The notes beneath the pieces were generated by a model. The model did no database searches, was not told where the DNA came from, and saw only the letters and a program-made list of their open reading frames with translations. The position numbers were made by a program, and so were the translations under genes. Of a stretch of DNA of 4,404 nucleotides, positions 1 to 4,404 are shown piece by piece; positions within the stretch are counted from its first letter, which is position 1, and every line of letters begins with the position of its first letter. Origin of the DNA: a virus (taxonomy: Duplodnaviria; Heunggongvirae; Uroviricota; Caudoviricetes); the IMG/VR virus record IMGVR_UViG_2582580934_000001, one strand, 5' to 3'.

Positions 1-480
1 AAATCCGAAACTGCAGCGGCATCATCGAAGAACGCGGCGAAAACCTCAGAAACGAATGCAGCTAACAGCGCACAGGCGGCAGCGACCTCACAGACTGCAT
101 CGGCAAACTCCGCGACAGCAGCCAAAAAATCAGAAACCAACGCGAAAAATAGCGAGACAGCCGCAAAGACGAGCGAAACCAACGCAAAGTCCAGCCAGAC
201 GGCAGCGAAGACCAGCGAAACGAATGCCAAAGCCAGTGAAACTGCGGCGAAAAGCAGTCAGGATGCAGCGGCTCAAAGCGAGAGTGCCGCAGCCAGTTCT
301 GCAAGCGCGGCGGCTGCTTCTGCCACTGCATCAGCTAACAGTCAAAAAGCAGCAAAAACCAGTGAAACCAACGCAAAGGTGAGCGAAACAGCGGCTGCGA
401 ACTCAGCGAAAGCATCGGCAGCAAGCCAGACGGCAGCTAAAGCAAGCGAAGATGCAGCCAGAGAGTACGCAAGCCAGGCT
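1..480 (+). repeat. Degenerate in-frame tandem repeats encoding SETNA(K)/SETAA(K) units (tail-fibre shaft repeat region)
   Basis: SETNA codon blocks at 46-60, 130-144, 172-186, 214-228 and 361-375; SETAA blocks at 4-18, 151-165, 235-249 and 382-396. The A/C/G-rich low-complexity DNA yields long spurious ORFs in the other frames (56..382 +, 62..331 -). Confidence 0.75.
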
Positions 481-1800
481 GCGGAGCCGTATAAATATGT
501 CTTACAGCCGCTGCCTGATGTGTGGATACCATTTAACGATTCGCTGGATATGATTACGGGCTTTTCGCCGTCATATAAAAAAATTGTTATTGGTGACGAT
601 GAAATAACGATGCCTGGCGACAAGATTGTTAAGTTTAAACGTGCATCGAAAGCAACCTATATTAACAAATCTGGTGTGCTGACAGAGGCTGCCATTGACG
701 AGCCACGATTTGAACGTGATGGCCTGCTTATTGAGGGGCAAAGAACAAACTACATGCTCAATTCGGAAAGCCCTGCCAGTTGGGGGCGATCGTCAAATAT
801 GGATGTGCCCGAAACAGGGACGGATAATTTTGGTTTTACCTATGGAAAGTTTGTCTGCAACGATTCTCTGATTGGGCAAACCTCAGCCATTAATATGGCA
901 TCAATTGCTGCAACAAAGTCAGTTGATGTCTCAGGCGATAATAAACACGTGACAACCTCATGTCGTTTTAAAACAGAACTGCAGGTAAGGTTGCGTATCC
1001 GGTTTGATAAATATGACGGTAGCGCAACAACTTTTCTTGGTGATGCGTATATTGATACACAAACGCTTGAAATTAATATGACAGGCGGTGCTGCCTCAAG
1101 GATTACAGCGAGAGTCAGAAAGGACGAAGCTACCGGATGGATTTTTGCAGAGGCAACAATTCAGGCAATTGATGGGGAGTTAAAAATAGGCTCTCAGATA
1201 CAGTATTCTCCTAAGCAGAGCGGGGCAACCGTATCTGGTGACTATATTTATCTGGCCACCCCACAAGTAGAAGATGGGCCTTGTGTATCATCTTTTATTA
1301 TATCAGGAGCGACGGCGGCGACCCGCGCAAGCGATATAGTTACAGTTCCAATTAAGAATAATCTTTATAATCTTCCTTTTACGGTTCTTTGTGAGGTACA
1401 TAAGAACTGGTATAAAACGCCAAATGCAGCGCCACGTGTTTTTGATACCGGCGGTCATCAAACCGGAGCGGCTATTATTCTTGGCTTCGGTCGTTCAACA
1501 GATTACGACGGATTTCCTTATTGCGATATTGGAGGAGCTAACAGACGGGTAAACGAAAACGCATCGCTTGAAAAAATGGTTATGGGGATGCGTGTAAAGT
1601 CAGAGCAGTCTACGTGCTCAGTAAGTAACGGGCATATATCCAGCGAAACAAAAACCACATGGTCCTGTATTCAGAACACCGCAATTATCCGTATTGGAGG
1701 CCAGACTACAGCCGGGTTACGTCATTTATTTGGTCATGTCAGGAATTTCAGAATATGGCACAAGGCATTGACTGATGCTCAGGTGGGGGAGTCAATCTAA
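1..1800 (+). CDS. Phage side tail fibre protein, 5'-partial (enters from upstream of window); Ala/Ser/Thr-rich repeat shaft followed by a lower-GC distal region with a LamG/concanavalin-like jelly-roll tip
   Basis: Frame 1 is open from nt 1 to the TAA at 1798-1800; the GTG at 379 in the ORF track is an internal codon of this longer frame. Nt 1-400 translate to KSETAAASSKNAAKTSETNA...KTSETNAKVSETAAAN with nine SET(N/A)A units, typical of Stf-type prophage fibre shafts. The last ~170 aa carry a LamG-like motif series (PFTVLCEVHKNW, RVFDTGG, AIILGFG, IRIGGQ, FGHVRNFRIWHKALTDAQV). Confidence 0.9.
   Translation, partial: KSETAAASSKNAAKTSETNAANSAQAAATSQTASANSATAAKKSETNAKNSETAAKTSETNAKSSQTAAKTSETNAKASETAAKSSQDAAAQSESAAASSASAAAASATASANSQKAAKTSETNAKVSETAAANSAKASAASQTAAKASEDAAREYASQAAEPYKYVLQPLPDVWIPFNDSLDMITGFSPSYKKIVIGDDEITMPGDKIVKFKRASKATYINKSGVLTEAAIDEPRFERDGLLIEGQRTNYMLNSESPASWGRSSNMDVPETGTDNFGFTYGKFVCNDSLIGQTSAINMASIAATKSVDVSGDNKHVTTSCRFKTELQVRLRIRFDKYDGSATTFLGDAYIDTQTLEINMTGGAASRITARVRKDEATGWIFAEATIQAIDGELKIGSQIQYSPKQSGATVSGDYIYLATPQVEDGPCVSSFIISGATAATRASDIVTVPIKNNLYNLPFTVLCEVHKNWYKTPNAAPRVFDTGGHQTGAAIILGFGRSTDYDGFPYCDIGGANRRVNENASLEKMVMGMRVKSEQSTCSVSNGHISSETKTTWSCIQNTAIIRIGGQTTAGLRHLFGHVRNFRIWHKALTDAQVGESI
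1786..1791 (+). promoter_or_regulatory. Shine-Dalgarno-like GGGGAG for the 1800 ORF, embedded in the end of the fibre gene
   Basis: GGGGAG at 1786-1791, 8 nt before the ATG at 1800; the ATG overlaps the fibre stop codon (TAATG), which suggests translational coupling. Confidence 0.5.
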
Positions 1801-2081
1801 TGAAAGATTTAACACTCAAATTTGAAGACAGGGCCGACTTTTCGGCCTTTATGGAGAGTATTGGCTATTATGATGACGAGTCGATGCAGGATGATATTCT
1901 TATCGACGTGATAGGTAACGTGTACAAAGAAACCGGAGAACTGACTGAAGATGGCGAACCGGTATGTGTTAAGGAAGACGGATATTTTGTAAACGTGCGC
2001 ATCATTAATGATTCGCAAATATCGTCATTATTCGATGAATACGTGGTTGCTGTTGAGCATCAACTTCGTGGCTGGATGTGA
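1800..2081 (+). CDS. Hypothetical small acidic protein (93 aa), unknown function, co-transcribed with the fibre genes
   Basis: ATG at 1800 with an upstream SD and 1-nt stop/start overlap with the fibre gene; stop TGA 2079-2081 lies 9 nt before the next gene. Protein is rich in D/E (MKDLTLKFEDRADFSAFMESIGYYDDESMQDD...). No family recognised from memory. Confidence 0.6.
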   Translation: MKDLTLKFEDRADFSAFMESIGYYDDESMQDDILIDVIGNVYKETGELTEDGEPVCVKEDGYFVNVRIINDSQISSLFDEYVVAVEHQLRGWM

Positions 2082-2084
2082 GGA
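2081..2084 (+). promoter_or_regulatory. Shine-Dalgarno AGGA for the 2091 ORF
   Basis: GAGGAAG at 2080-2086, with AGGA at 2081-2084 and a 6-nt spacer to the ATG at 2091. Confidence 0.55.
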
Positions 2085-2090
2085 AGAAAA

Positions 2091-3131
2091 ATGGCTACAT
2101 CGACAGTAATTCCTGATGACATCAAAACGCTAAAATCCGACGTTAGCAAATTAAAAAACGATCAAGGAAGCTACGCAACAAAATCTTATGTAGACAATAA
2201 AACAACATGGAATGGTTATTGCAATGTAATCTATGATCAAAAAACATTGCCAACAACTGGAACTATATTCAGCGGTAAGCTGCATTTGTCAAATAAGACT
2301 GGTGAAACGGAAAACGCTTATAGTGACATATATACCAGAAAAAATATTGATGGTACTAAAGATACAATGACGAGGATCGTCACACATAACGGGACAAAAG
2401 GTATCTTTTGGGACTTTAGTGATCTTTACGGAGGAACTTTAATTTTTCCAGGCAGTGATGGTTACCTTAAGATGGGGAACTGTCTCATGTCGTATGGTGT
2501 GCGGGGAAGTAACGCGCTTATTAAGTTTGATAATACAGACTCATTGCAGATCAAATATGCTAATCACGGGTCGACCATGACACTAAACACGCAAGGTACG
2601 GCGTATTCTGGTGTGTCGACGTTATTATGGGGAAATTCCAGCCGTCCTGTTGTTTATGAAGTCGGTGTTGATGGTGGCGCTTATATGTTCTATGCGCAGA
2701 AAAATACCGATAACACCTATATGTTAAGCGTTAATGGTGCATGTCATGCCACCGCATTTAACCAGCATTCCGACCGGGATCTGAAAGACAACATTCAGGT
2801 GATCGATAATGCAACCGACCGCATCCGTAAAATGAACGGCTATACATACACGCTTAAAGAAAACGGTATGCCCTATGCTGGTGTCATTGCACAGGAAGCT
2901 CTGGAAGCAATCCCAGAAGTTGTAGGTTCCGCAATGAAATATCAGGACGGTGCGAGCGGATCGGAAGGTGAAGAAGGTGAACGTTATTACACAGTAGATT
3001 ATTCTGGTGTTACTGGCTTGCTTGTTCAGGTAGCCAGAGAGTCAGACGACAGAATAACAGCACTGGAAGAAGAAAACGCAGAATTAAGACAAAGATTATC
3101 TGTAATTGAGGCGGCGCTTGCGTCTAAATAA
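2091..3131 (+). CDS. Tail fibre / tailspike-like protein (346 aa) with C-terminal intramolecular chaperone auto-processing domain (peptidase S74 type)
   Basis: ATG at 2091 with a good SD; stop TAA 3129-3131. Residues 227-346 read SDRDLKDNIQVID...RIRKMNGYTYTLKENGMPYAGVIAQEALEAIPEVV...YYTVDYSGVTGLLVQVARE...ALEEENAELRQRL, which matches the conserved pattern of the endosialidase / T5 pb1-type chaperone domain (SD-R-LK, G-IAQE-P-VV, DYS-L-V, terminal coiled coil). The N-terminal ~226 aa are AT-rich and Gly/Thr/Asn/Tyr-rich, as expected for a beta-rich receptor-binding part. Confidence 0.88.
   Translation: MATSTVIPDDIKTLKSDVSKLKNDQGSYATKSYVDNKTTWNGYCNVIYDQKTLPTTGTIFSGKLHLSNKTGETENAYSDIYTRKNIDGTKDTMTRIVTHNGTKGIFWDFSDLYGGTLIFPGSDGYLKMGNCLMSYGVRGSNALIKFDNTDSLQIKYANHGSTMTLNTQGTAYSGVSTLLWGNSSRPVVYEVGVDGGAYMFYAQKNTDNTYMLSVNGACHATAFNQHSDRDLKDNIQVIDNATDRIRKMNGYTYTLKENGMPYAGVIAQEALEAIPEVVGSAMKYQDGASGSEGEEGERYYTVDYSGVTGLLVQVARESDDRITALEEENAELRQRLSVIEAALASK
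2769..3128 (+). other. Domain: intramolecular chaperone / autoproteolytic C-terminal domain; predicted cleavage Ser codon at 2769-2771 (Ser227 of the 2091 ORF)
   Basis: HSDRDLKDN motif; the Ser in the SD-R-LK context is the established self-cleavage residue in characterised S74 domains. Assignment is by motif recall, not by search. Confidence 0.7.
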
Positions 3132-3137
3132 TATTAA

Positions 3138-3160
3138 GGGGCCGAGCGCCCCGTTTTATT
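3138..3160 (+). terminator. Rho-independent terminator ending the fibre gene cluster
   Basis: GGGGC (3138-3142), loop CGAGC, GCCCC (3148-3152), followed by GTTTTATT (3153-3160), 7 nt after the stop of the 2091 ORF. Confidence 0.7.
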
Positions 3161-3173
3161 GGGTAGGATGAAA

Positions 3174-3467
3174 ATGGATATAACACCTTTCCTTCATGCG
3201 CTTTGTGCTGTGGCTGCGCAGCTACTGATTGGTCTTTTTACCGGGAACTGGGCTTACGGGGCGATAGCCGGTTGTACGTTCTTCATTGCGCGTGAACACA
3301 CCCAGGCAGAATATCGCTGGATCGAAATGTTCGGGCATGGCAAGCGAATGAATATGCCGTGGTGGGGCGGTTTTGATACACGTGCATGGGATGTGGCAAG
3401 CCTGATGGATTTTGCTGTGCCGGTGGTGGCGTGTCTGCTGGTCTGGCTGTTGGTTAATCGTGGGTGA
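3174..3467 (+). CDS. Hypothetical small membrane protein (~97 aa from ATG 3174; in-frame alternative starts at ATG 3168 and TTG 3159), two predicted hydrophobic helices
   Basis: AGGA at 3165-3168 lies 5 nt before the ATG at 3174; stop TGA 3465-3467. Hydrophobic stretches FLHALCAVAAQLLIGLFTGNWAYGAIAGCTFFIA and ASLMDFAVPVVACLLVWLLV. GC is about 55%, unlike the AT-rich genes upstream. No family recognised. Confidence 0.5.
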   Translation: MDITPFLHALCAVAAQLLIGLFTGNWAYGAIAGCTFFIAREHTQAEYRWIEMFGHGKRMNMPWWGGFDTRAWDVASLMDFAVPVVACLLVWLLVNRG

Positions 3468-3477
3468 AAAAAGGTGA

Positions 3478-3606
3478 GCTGTATATGCAACGGAGGAAGA
3501 AACCCCGTTGCTGGAAGCCTGGAAAAAGTATCGGATGCTGCTGAACCGTGTTGATACATCAACTGCACCTGATATTGAGTGGCCTACGAACCCTGTCAGG
3601 GAGTAA
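3478..3606 (+). pseudogene. tfa: Fossil 3' end of a tail fibre assembly (Tfa) gene; only ~42 C-terminal codons remain and there is no start codon
   Basis: Frame 1 between TGA 3475-3477 and TAA 3604-3606 translates [42 protein letters not shown]. As I recall it, the phage lambda Tfa C-terminus is ...[36 protein letters not shown], a near match. Upstream frames are closed, and the unrelated 3174..3467 ORF sits in another frame. Confidence 0.75.
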
Positions 3607-3669
3607 TCATTGGGATTATGCCGCAGAACGTCTTAAGTAATCATTGGGATTATGCCGCAGAAACGTTGT
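3602..3669. repeat. Tandem direct duplication, 2 x 34 bp (first 27 nt identical), starting inside the tfa stop codon
   Basis: 3602-3635 is AGTAATCATTGGGATTATGCCGCAGAACGTCTTA and 3636-3669 is AGTAATCATTGGGATTATGCCGCAGAAACGTTGT. Confidence 0.85.
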
Positions 3670-3688
3670 ATGCAATAACGTTCTGCGG
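3655..3688. repeat. Inverted repeat / hairpin: 12-bp stem with one bulged A and a 9-nt loop; no following T-tract
   Basis: CCGCAGAAACGTT (3655-3667) pairs with AACGTTCTGCGG (3677-3688). The copy-1 sequence CCGCAGAACGT (3621-3631) is perfectly complementary to 3678-3688, giving an alternative pairing partner. A second 7-bp hairpin lies at 3696-3715 (ATGCACT / AGTGCAT). Confidence 0.6.
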
Positions 3689-3852
3689 TTGGCTGATGCA
3701 CTTTCGAGAGTGCATGTATTGAATTATTTCCAGCTATTATCGATTTTACGTATTTTTTGCATGAGAGAATTTGTACCTCCTCCCAACAACGACCTTCCAT
3801 GACTTTCCGGACTTCTGTGGGCCAGCGGACGATGCTGCCCTCGGATGTTGTG

Positions 3853-4404
3853 CTAATTGGGTGATGACAAATCCTGTGTATGGGTGTTTCCCTTTGTGCG
3901 TGCGTTGATGCTGGTAACGGTGAACGTCATGATGAACACAACCGCGAATAAGACGACAATCGTCGGAGCTGGTGCACTGTCGATAAAAAAGGACAACCAG
4001 ACACCAGTCATTGACACTATTACCGATATGCCAATCGCCAGTAGGAGCGCAATATGAAAGCGTTGTGTCAGGAGTACCGCAATGGCGCCAGGCGCAATGA
4101 GCAGAGAAATGGAGAGAATGATACCTACCGCTTTCAGCGTCGCCACAATGGTCAGAGAGACCATGCACAGCAGCCCATAATGCAGACATCTCGTATGCAA
4201 ACCGCTTACCTGCGCCTGTTGATAATCAAAGCTGAACAGCAAAAAATCCCGCCATTTTACGCTAATAACAAGTGTAACCAGCCCGGCAATAATCACCGTC
4301 TGGATTATATCGCCGATGGTTACCCCGAGCATGTCGCCGAAAAGAATATGGTCAAGATGTACGTCTGGTTTGACTGCAATATACAAGATCAGACCTGCGG
4401 CAAA
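3853..4404 (-). CDS. sitD: ABC-3 family divalent-metal (Mn/Fe) ABC transporter permease, SitD-like; 3' portion only, N-terminus lies beyond the window edge
   Basis: Minus-strand frame is open from nt 4404 down to stop TAG at 3855-3853. Translation ...LFGDMLGVTIGDIIQTVIIAGLVTLVISVKWRDFLLFSFDYQQAQVSGL...AVGIILSISLLIAPGAIAVLLTQRFH...FIDSAPAPTIVVLFAVVFIM aligns with the ZnuB/MntB/SitCD permease pattern (LFGDLLAV...LSxTISPDLAxxxG...xVGxLLxxSLLIxPAAxA...SGPxIVL). The sitD name is contextual (last permease of an operon next to prophage genes) and the symbol is less certain than the family. Confidence 0.8.
   Translation of the reverse strand, partial: FAAGLILYIAVKPDVHLDHILFGDMLGVTIGDIIQTVIIAGLVTLVISVKWRDFLLFSFDYQQAQVSGLHTRCLHYGLLCMVSLTIVATLKAVGIILSISLLIAPGAIAVLLTQRFHIALLLAIGISVIVSMTGVWLSFFIDSAPAPTIVVLFAVVFIMTFTVTSINARTKGNTHTQDLSSPN

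Follow-up and report, generated by a model that had tools for sequence, protein, structure and literature searches.

A probable horizontally mobile receptor-binding cassette on the side tail fibre of a lambda-like Escherichia coli prophage

Introduction

Tail-fibre tips decide which bacteria a phage, or a delivery particle derived from a phage, attaches to, and modular exchange of such tips between unrelated phages was reportedly described by Haggard-Ljungquist et al. in 1992, by Hendrix and Duda in 1992 and by Sandmeier in 1994. Here we analyse a stretch of 4,404 nt of viral DNA (IMG/VR record IMGVR_UViG_2582580934_000001, hereafter the window), which represents the tail-fibre end of an E. 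coli prophage resembling phage 21 and lambda, beside sitABCD. An original prediction, made from the sequence letters of the window, held that a receptor-binding module of low G+C content (GC) at nt 480–3160 had been grafted onto a conserved fibre shaft. We find that nt 505–3137 very probably constitute a horizontally mobile receptor-binding cassette of the side tail fibre (Stf), seated on an anchor and shaft of the lambda/phage-21 type. The locus is a clear case of known tail-fibre mosaicism, not a system of a new type. Biologically it was to be expected, and what is useful in it is a fusion point and a partner protein.

Among the closest described systems are the branched LtfA/LtfB fibres of the T5-like phages DT57C and DT571/2 (Golomidova et al., 2016, PMC4728585), which have also been studied by cryo-electron microscopy (PMC10713586). 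There, as here, two fibre genes are consecutive. The product of the first has an anchor to the tail and a long trimeric shaft of alpha-helices, and the second encodes a protein without an anchor that is thought to attach by a conserved N-terminal segment and carries an S74 domain, as does the second fibre of the window (fibre 2). The two loci differ in that both LtfA and LtfB carry S74, whereas only fibre 2 does so here. The first fibre of the window instead ends in a weakly LamG-like motif and is followed by a protein of 92–93 aa, its anchor is of the lambda Stf type (PF08400) and not of the T5 type, and branching is here suggested by the genes. A term search of PMC4728585 and PMC10713586 found no mention of a 92–93-aa companion protein.

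The second relevant system is the Stf/Tfa pair of lambda (Ur-lambda). The gene has the same position after J and lom, the N-terminal ~117 aa and the flanking DNA are 84% identical, protein identity is 60% through aa 290, and the N-terminal domain has been solved (PDB 9e7m). In lambda the tip depends on Tfa, whose gene lies downstream. In the window the distal part and a working Tfa are gone, and a lectin-like module (phrog_1419 with a GTA_spike_fiber match), a small protein and an S74-type second fibre are found instead. The distal tip of lambda Stf is related to the tip of the T4 long fibre (a reference in PMC11338833).

The lateral fibres of small siphoviruses (Drexlerviridae, Dhillonvirus, Queuovirinae) in the BASEL studies consist of a single protein or of several. 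Members of a phage group have in common only the 5′-end of the first fibre gene, and the presumed primary receptor is O-antigen (Maffei et al., 2021, PMC8594841; Humolli et al., 2025, PMC11990801). Our locus differs in that the carrier is a temperate lambdoid prophage, and we add the exact joint (nt 505) and the linkage of the small open reading frame (ORF). A laboratory counterpart of the graft exists as well: Brodel et al. (2024, PMC11338833) joined the N-terminal part of lambda Stf to distal parts from P2, K1F, K5 and KL106 and obtained functional particles with new specificity. Fusion points in those chimeras were chosen by the authors, whereas the natural fusion described here lies at a domain boundary and comes with additional companion genes. 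A literature search joining phage 21, sitABCD and side tail fibre found no paper.

Results

The stf gene is cut by the left end of the window and ends at nt 1800 (frame-1 translation; this and all features below are on the forward strand unless stated otherwise). Its distal module (505–1800) begins at nt 505 (aa 169), the first codon of a conserved box that opens with QPLPDVWIPFNDSL and includes QPLPDVW. The box as a whole, QPLPDVWIPFNDSLDMITGFSPSYKKI (505–582), is the first conserved segment of the module in DNA and protein alignments and is kept in all carriers. When the DNA of eight phages is aligned, the sequences upstream of nt 505 are unrelated (phage 21, ESCO3, tunus) and become near-invariant from this position on. 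In a protein search the distal module was found at 86–96% amino acid identity behind six different N-terminal parts, and the switch is always at the same residue. The six are the lambda Stf anchor (PF08400); a second lambdoid form, with another N-terminal anchor and the same shaft; a Nonagvirus form (ESCO3, VogelGryff); a Drexlerviridae form (tinuso and a 52.5-kb contig); a T5-like form, in a 108-kb contig where the module comes directly after LtfC; and a P2-like form, in which the myovirus fibres follow baseplate genes J/I and the upstream part consists of Phage_fiber_2 repeats without Ala-rich repeats. The cassette or parts of it occur in ESCO3, JenP1, VogelGryff, tunus and tinuso.

The same boundary is seen in pairwise BLASTN comparisons of the window with 13 phage loci, for which identity was tabulated per 100 nt. 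Homology starts at nt 479 in phage 21, covers 505–3067 in ESCO3 (89%) and covers 463–2162 in tunus (78%). The best phage match to nt 1–480 is IdasGreatGrand (94%), which is different distally, and the best matches from nt 505 to ~3137 are PhiR63_1, Tritos and 2G7b together with the virulent Nonagvirus ESCO3. The two parts of the predicted graft have thus different best-matching phages, as had been anticipated. We therefore find two properties of a mosaic specificity module, namely sharp breakpoints with different nearest relatives on each side and the same module in otherwise unrelated backbones (lambdoid, Nonagvirus, Drexlerviridae, T5-like, P2-like). The exchange had been proposed to take place by recombination in the repeat region. 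The breakpoint was expected near nt 480. The joint lies 25 nt further right, where the distal domain begins, and is outside the repeats, since all carriers switch at the same residue and Ala-rich repeats are missing upstream in the P2-like ones. As the shaft is also found on another N-terminal anchor, the repeats recombine as well.

Upstream of the joint, nt 1–504 encode the Ala/Ser/Thr-rich shaft, recognised from its translation, composition and repeat scans. Direct-repeat families at 21/42-nt spacing (7/14 aa) occupy nt 29–450 and include a period-42 tandem repeat. Repeat length differs among phages, with Stf proteins of 686–812 aa and a 189-nt indel relative to PhiR63_1. As nt 34–188 are 79% identical to the L-shaped fibre gene (ltf) of T5, the periodicity and this similarity fit a three-helix coiled coil like the one seen in LtfA of the DT57C virion (PMC10713586). 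The anchor domain lies just left of the window: PF08400 is present in the 728-aa full-length homologues P0002 and P0003, which are identical over the query region, and the N-terminus matches the tail fibre protein of PDB 9e7m (E = 6e-49). In the RefSeq annotation of a 99%-identical genome the stf gene stands after J and lom, the lambda-type position.

Base composition changes near both edges of the cassette. The GC values counted by hand in the original prediction were reproduced exactly (0.567 at 1–120, 0.392 at 541–660 and 0.342 at 2101–2220), and GC after the terminator is 0.525–0.55 (3181–3360, sliding windows). Segment means are 0.556 (1–480), 0.429 (481–3140) and 0.508 (3161–3640). The maximum-likelihood change point within 1–1800 is nt 489 (0.562 to 0.440, likelihood ratio 21), and that within 2800–3640 is nt 3137 (0.442 to 0.515, likelihood ratio 4.3), which coincides with a terminator-like hairpin and with the homology breakpoints. 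The drop was thus located correctly, as beginning around nt 480 and ending at the terminator, and the uniform composition named as the counter-case did not appear when GC was computed. By codon position, the step near nt 480 is mainly one of position 2, where GC goes from 0.69 to 0.46 with a change point at nt 463 (likelihood ratio 25); the shaft, whose GC at position 2 is 0.68, consists of 34.5% Ala, 19% Ser and 11% Thr. GC at the third codon position (GC3) drops less within stf, 0.488 to 0.385 (p = 0.027 in a chi-square test), with its change point best placed at ~nt 571 (likelihood ratio 8.4). The distal part of Stf (505–1800) has a GC of 0.444 and a GC3 of 0.387. When the module is set against the prophage backbone the foreign composition signal is strong: its GC3 is 0.389 and that of gene J is 0.670 (p ~1e-35), with the J, K and L genes at 0.65–0.67.

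A second compositional boundary exists within the tail genes of the prophage. The tape measure and gpM-like genes (locus 1870–5434) have a GC3 of 0.38 and 0.34, respectively, and L, K, I and J (locus 5434–10882) have a GC of 0.55–0.59 and a GC3 of 0.55–0.67.

The distal two-thirds of Stf are classified as tail protein (phrog_1419/5939). Residues 372–572 match the NCBIfam family GTA_spike_fiber (NF048003, a phage/gene transfer agent (GTA) head-spike-fibre family) with 50.8 bits against a cut-off of 36, and AlphaFold2 models the same stretch, residues 90–262 of the distal part (~nt 763–1281), as a confident beta-sandwich (predicted local distance difference test score, pLDDT, 80–95). The alignment behind the model was shallow, the listed homologues all being at least 76% identical. 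The best Foldseek matches are baseplate and tail-fibre complexes of Pseudomonas phages Pa193/E217, CBM4/6/16/35 and legume lectins (E 5e-5 to 1e-2). In the C-terminal region a motif, IRIGGQT..RHLFGH.RN.R.WHK.LTD (nt 1627–1785), is kept in every variant. A Laminin_G_3 match to the C-terminal part (E = 0.0016), below the Pfam cut-off, indicates a weak LamG/ConA likeness, and Pfam gave no S74 match in Stf even at E up to 10 on the C-terminal part. As a glycan has been proposed as the primary receptor of lateral fibres both in small siphoviruses (PMC8594841) and in T5-like phages (PMC4728585), the fold model and this analogy suggest that the distal part of Stf is probably the region that binds a primary glycan receptor.

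The start codon of the next gene (1800–2081) overlaps the stf stop by one base (TAATG), an arrangement that suggests translational coupling. It encodes an acidic protein of 93 aa (pI 4.05; phrog_1361) and directly follows the fibre gene in lambdoid, Nonagvirus, Drexlerviridae, T5-like and P2-like contexts. The small ORF goes with the distal module in all contexts, even in phages that have no fibre 2 (phage 21, PhiR40_1, ev243), and its role is thus linked to Stf rather than to fibre 2. The protein matched no Pfam or NCBIfam family, even at a permissive Pfam threshold. AlphaFold2, run on an alignment of database matches only, gave an alpha/beta fold (pLDDT 82), for which a fold search returned nothing significant among PDB structures (best E = 0.017); matches to NusG, PII and ribosomal proteins had E above 0.01 and were treated as noise. 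Matches in BFVD were to uncharacterised phage proteins only. Our best guess is that the 93-aa protein is a dedicated assembly or joint factor.

The second fibre gene (2091–3131) encodes 346 aa that match the tail fibre family phrog_4563 over the full length. Its C-terminal domain (2769–3131) is a Pfam Peptidase_S74 domain (PF13884; E = 6e-14, 52.4 bits against a cut-off of 22, aa 227–278). The domain starts with S227-D-R-D-L-K232, and this serine with a lysine five residues on presumably corresponds to the Ser/Lys pair of the K1F endosialidase chaperone. Self-cleavage at this site is predicted to yield a mature product of 226 aa and a released part of 120 aa. At its other end fibre 2 begins with the motif MATSTVIPDDIKTLKSDVSKLK (nt 2091–2156), of consensus MAT(S/V)T(V/T)IPxDIxxLK, which is kept across divergent fibre bodies in lambdoid, Nonagvirus, Drexlerviridae and P2-like phages; the T5-like locus has a different fibre-2 N-terminus. 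Between this motif and the S74 domain lies a variable, putatively receptor-binding part. Two adjacent fibre genes are thus present, of which stf has an anchor and fibre 2 has no anchor domain. By analogy with LtfB, the conserved 22-residue N-terminus suggests docking of fibre 2 on the tip of Stf.

The cassette had been described as a module. The cassette is real, but mosaics are nested within it, and no fewer than four additional breakpoints lie inside. Fibre 2 is 100% identical to PhiR63_1 up to nt 2180, falls to identities of 0.43–0.70 over 2181–2510, and is again 100% identical from ~nt 2660. The replaced patch (2181–2640, aa ~31–183) was delimited from this identity profile; it shares about 50% identity with phages that are otherwise identical. 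It has a GC of 0.37 against 0.476 for the PhiR63_1 allele, and its nearest phages are the virulent Nonagvirus JenP1 (92.5%) and PhiR11_1 (90%). GC has a further change point at nt 2447, and the trough where GC is lowest in the window (2101–2447), part of which (2101–2220) had been counted by hand, belongs to this patch. Both the 100-nt identity table and a 40-aa identity profile along Stf show conserved and variable stretches in alternation. The middle of distal Stf holds at least two independently assorting blocks, as phage 21 Stf has 90–95% protein identity at aa 361–560 and 28–68% beyond, and PhiR40_1 has the reverse pattern. A conserved island at nt ~1690–2160, reaching from the last ~38 stf codons across the small ORF to codon ~22 of fibre 2, is common to PhiR49_1, PhiR46_1 and IdasGreatGrand despite flanks that are unrelated or highly divergent. 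Searches of the fibre-2 body, the box and the downstream membrane protein at a permissive Pfam threshold gave nothing useful, only a chance PhoR match.

At the right edge, homology to Nonagvirus stops at nt 3067, and matches found only in lambdoids resume at nt 3165–3174 (92–100%). Between the two, a terminator scan detected a terminator-like hairpin, GGGGC-CGAGC-GCCCC followed by GTTTTATT (3138–3160). The next gene (3174–3467) encodes a small membrane protein of 97 aa (102 aa if started from the TTG at 3159; phrog_1443) and has a backbone-like GC of 0.53. It follows the cassette in nine out of nine lambdoids examined (88–100% identity); the loci of Nonagvirus, Drexlerviridae and T5-like phages lack it. 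A consensus scan for a sigma-70 promoter serving this gene past the terminator found none. By eye the protein has three hydrophobic stretches, and its phage 21 homologue is annotated as a putative membrane protein.

Downstream of the membrane-protein gene lies a fossil of tfa (3487–3606) that consists of the last 39 codons and the stop, a stub and not a full-length gene. It matches positions 103–130 of the 131-position Caudo_TAP profile (PF02413; E = 1.5e-13), has 33 of its 39 residues (85%) identical to lambda Tfa 156–194, and is annotated in RefSeq as a pseudogene without an N-terminus. On the DNA level, nt 3486–3628 are 89% identical to the 3′-end of lambda tfa and the 23 nt beyond. Lambda is collinear with the prophage on both flanks (lambda 19458–19999, holding the lom 3′-end and the stf 5′-end, and 22437–22608), and the lambda stretch in between, which is distal stf and four-fifths of tfa, is the place taken here by the cassette and the membrane gene. 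Since what is left corresponds to the final 39 codons of tfa in lambda, the cassette probably took the place of a lambda-type stf-tfa tip, and the suggestion that the fossil marks what was displaced is supported.

Some smaller features lie around the stub. Window nt 3651–3804 match lambda just after tfa (97.5%) and again ~1.6 kb on, beyond ea47 (83%), at coordinates 4070–4109 and 5662–5809 of the lambda locus. The match of the DNA after the stub to both places in lambda implies that a short direct repeat stands on either side of lambda ea47, and that in the window this site is free of ea47. Just 3′ of the stub, nt 3602–3662 hold a perfect 27-nt direct repeat (AGTAATCATTGGGATTATGCCGCAGAA) with 34-nt spacing, that is, a 34-nt tandem duplication. 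The corresponding chromosomal stretch of E. coli CB209 is shorter than the window by 34 nt (4370 vs 4404).

The wider setting was read from the CB209 chromosome, which is 99.2% identical to the window. RefSeq gives the order tape measure, M, L, K, I, J, lom and then stf (728 aa), whose product is named 'prophage tail fiber N-terminal domain-containing protein'. On the 3′-side of stf follow two hypothetical genes, a 'tail fiber domain-containing protein', the tfa pseudogene and, on the opposite strand, sitDCBA. The stf gene, the overlapping small ORF, the second fibre and the tfa remnant were all found as they had been described. The layout is common to phage 21 and a group of sequenced lambdoids, among them Tritos, 2G7b, HannyBb, the PhiR series, ev207 and ev243.

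Discussion

We consider it very probable that nt 505–3137 form a mobile cassette, and suggest the following scheme for how it could work. The lectin/CBM-like beta-sandwich in the distal two-thirds of Stf would bind a surface glycan as the primary, reversible receptor, and the coupled 93-aa protein would act as a dedicated assembly or joint factor. The short fibre 2 could dock by its 22-aa N-terminus on the Stf tip, giving a branched fibre with a second specificity, and its S74 chaperone domain would fold the fibre-2 trimer and then cut itself off at Ser227. The linkers (the box at 505–582, the island at ~1690–2160 and the S74 domain) alternate with variable stretches, and recombination at these linkers may swap whole or partial modules between temperate lambdoids and virulent Nonagvirus, Drexlerviridae and T5-like phages, and P2-like phages. 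In the lineage studied here, the cassette most likely replaced the lambda-type distal stf and most of the chaperone gene tfa, leaving the 39-codon stub.

A possible but somewhat doubtful extension is that the 93-aa protein, the last ~38 residues of Stf and the 22-residue N-terminus of fibre 2 together form a portable 'branch joint', a new partner that takes the place of Tfa. If true, at least five lineages, with contractile as well as non-contractile tails, could plug in a second receptor-binding protein by this means.

Several observations weigh against the proposed cassette or narrow what can be read from it. Amino acid content accounts for about half the drop in GC near nt 480, because codon position 2 dominates in the Ala/Ser/Thr shaft and GC3 falls less; the GC3 step inside stf is only modestly significant (p = 0.027), and the step at the right edge is weak when taken alone (likelihood ratio 4.3). 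Low GC is also met elsewhere in the prophage, in the tape measure gene (0.45) and the gpM-like gene (0.41). The structural model of the Stf distal part is confident in only 173 of 434 residues, the first 86 and the last 170 not being interpretable, and the fold matches are weak, with template modelling (TM) scores of ~0.25–0.5. That the prophage makes particles, and that the small protein and fibre 2 are virion components, would be predictions from the sequence. Composition alone cannot fix the direction of transfer, and a third donor is possible. Finally, the window shares its order over nt 1–3584 with several lambdoid phages, and the graft is therefore old and is now vertically inherited in that lambdoid group. 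Collinearity of the whole region with the same GC profile and without a tfa remnant was the outcome that the original prediction had set against itself; the tfa remnant and the breakpoints are present.

The alternative that fares best, and that we still regard as unlikely, is that the cassette is native to lambdoid prophages and that virulent and P2-like phages captured copies while infecting lysogens. Prophages are an obvious recombination reservoir, and E. coli chromosomes very often carry the cassette: of 5426 complete E. coli genomes, 364 have at least 80% of nt 505–3137 and 1807 have parts of it, and most protein matches carry the lambdoid PF08400 anchor. The cassette is indeed common in lambdoids and now largely inherited. 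However, the GC3 of the module (0.39) agrees with Nonagvirus and Drexlerviridae backbones (0.37) and not with the lambdoid J-K-L block (0.65–0.67); the J-like gene of ESCO3 has a GC3 of 0.374, and the Nonagvirus and Drexlerviridae loci have a GC of 0.44–0.45. The tfa stub moreover marks an earlier, chaperone-dependent tip at the lambdoid locus. These values favour an origin of the cassette in a virulent-phage pool of ~44% GC. In the T5-like contig, the copy of the distal module (7796–9091, 87% protein identity) has a GC3 of 0.22, and the pb3 and pb4 genes of that genome have a GC3 of 0.25, which suggests long residence of the module there with GC3 drifting to match.

Somewhat less likely again is the explanation that the tfa stub is the remnant chaperone of a Tfa-dependent fibre 2 and decayed after a swap to the S74 tip. 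The P2-like contig points to such a pairing, as an uncalled fibre 2 of ~307 aa (2550–3472) that starts with the fibre-2 motif MATVTTIPADITNLK follows the small ORF and is itself followed by an intact Caudo_TAP gene of 175 aa (3472–3999). Because a motif-bearing fibre 2 is there paired with an intact Caudo_TAP gene, a Tfa-dependent fibre 2 could have been the ancestor of the stub's context, and on our own reading of the sequence the tip of this P2-like fibre 2 is presumably like that of P2 gpH. Yet in the window the stub and the next 23 nt are 89–90% identical to lambda, lambda-like DNA continues beyond (3651–3804), and the 5′-end of stf is lambda-like as well, which fits a simple replacement in a lambda-type backbone. 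In addition, the membrane-protein gene stands between fibre 2 and the stub. We therefore prefer the reading that the stub is what the cassette left of lambda-type tfa.

It is very improbable that the GC drop comes purely from protein composition, an Ala/Ser/Thr shaft giving way to ordinary globular domains with no foreign origin. The largest change is indeed at codon position 2, GC3 declines only from 0.49 to 0.39, and the shaft is 34% Ala, all of which such an explanation would lead one to expect. It does not account for a module GC3 (0.389) far under that of the neighbouring J, K and L genes, for homology breakpoints that meet the composition change point, or for the presence of the module on six unrelated N-terminal parts. 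Hardly credible at all is in situ generation of the variable stretches by a Pin/Gin-type invertible segment, of the kind known for tail-fibre tips of Mu, P1 and e14, or by a diversity-generating retroelement, which we reject since, although PhiR63_1 has a gene for a Pin-type serine recombinase on the 3′-side of its cassette, no inverted repeats flank the fibre segments (the sole inverted pair in the window is 18 nt with 83% complementarity), the window holds no recombinase or reverse transcriptase gene, and the variants are fixed alleles in different phage genomes.

With the mobile cassette as the preferred reading, we point out that nt 505 (the QPLPDVW box) is a precisely mapped natural fusion point, which can serve directly as a design rule for engineered lambda-type particles. 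The second set of conserved linkers makes fibre 2 exchangeable independently, and the uncharacterised 93-aa partner may need to be moved together with the module.

Beyond the tail-fibre genes, the right end of the window holds the 3′-part of sitD (3853–4404, reverse strand), which encodes an iron/manganese ABC transporter permease (ABC-3 family, E = 5e-40; sitDCBA in RefSeq) and is prophage cargo. The sitDCBA junction differs between prophages. In phage 21 (6950–10730 of its locus) the cargo comes after the first part of the tfa stub, and the segment that matches window nt 3671–3806 lies beyond sitA in phage 21 and before sitD in the window. In several E. coli genomes (H3, H11, H14, H15, H22, H96) an IS3-family transposase is annotated inside the stretch that matches the window or cassette, and some copies of the locus are thus probably disrupted. 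Finally, in PhiR41_1, a 108-kb circular record, an stf of this family is split into two ORFs and is followed by the small ORF and the membrane-protein gene; it may be a large element of the phage-plasmid type with the cassette in common, or else a record that was concatenated.

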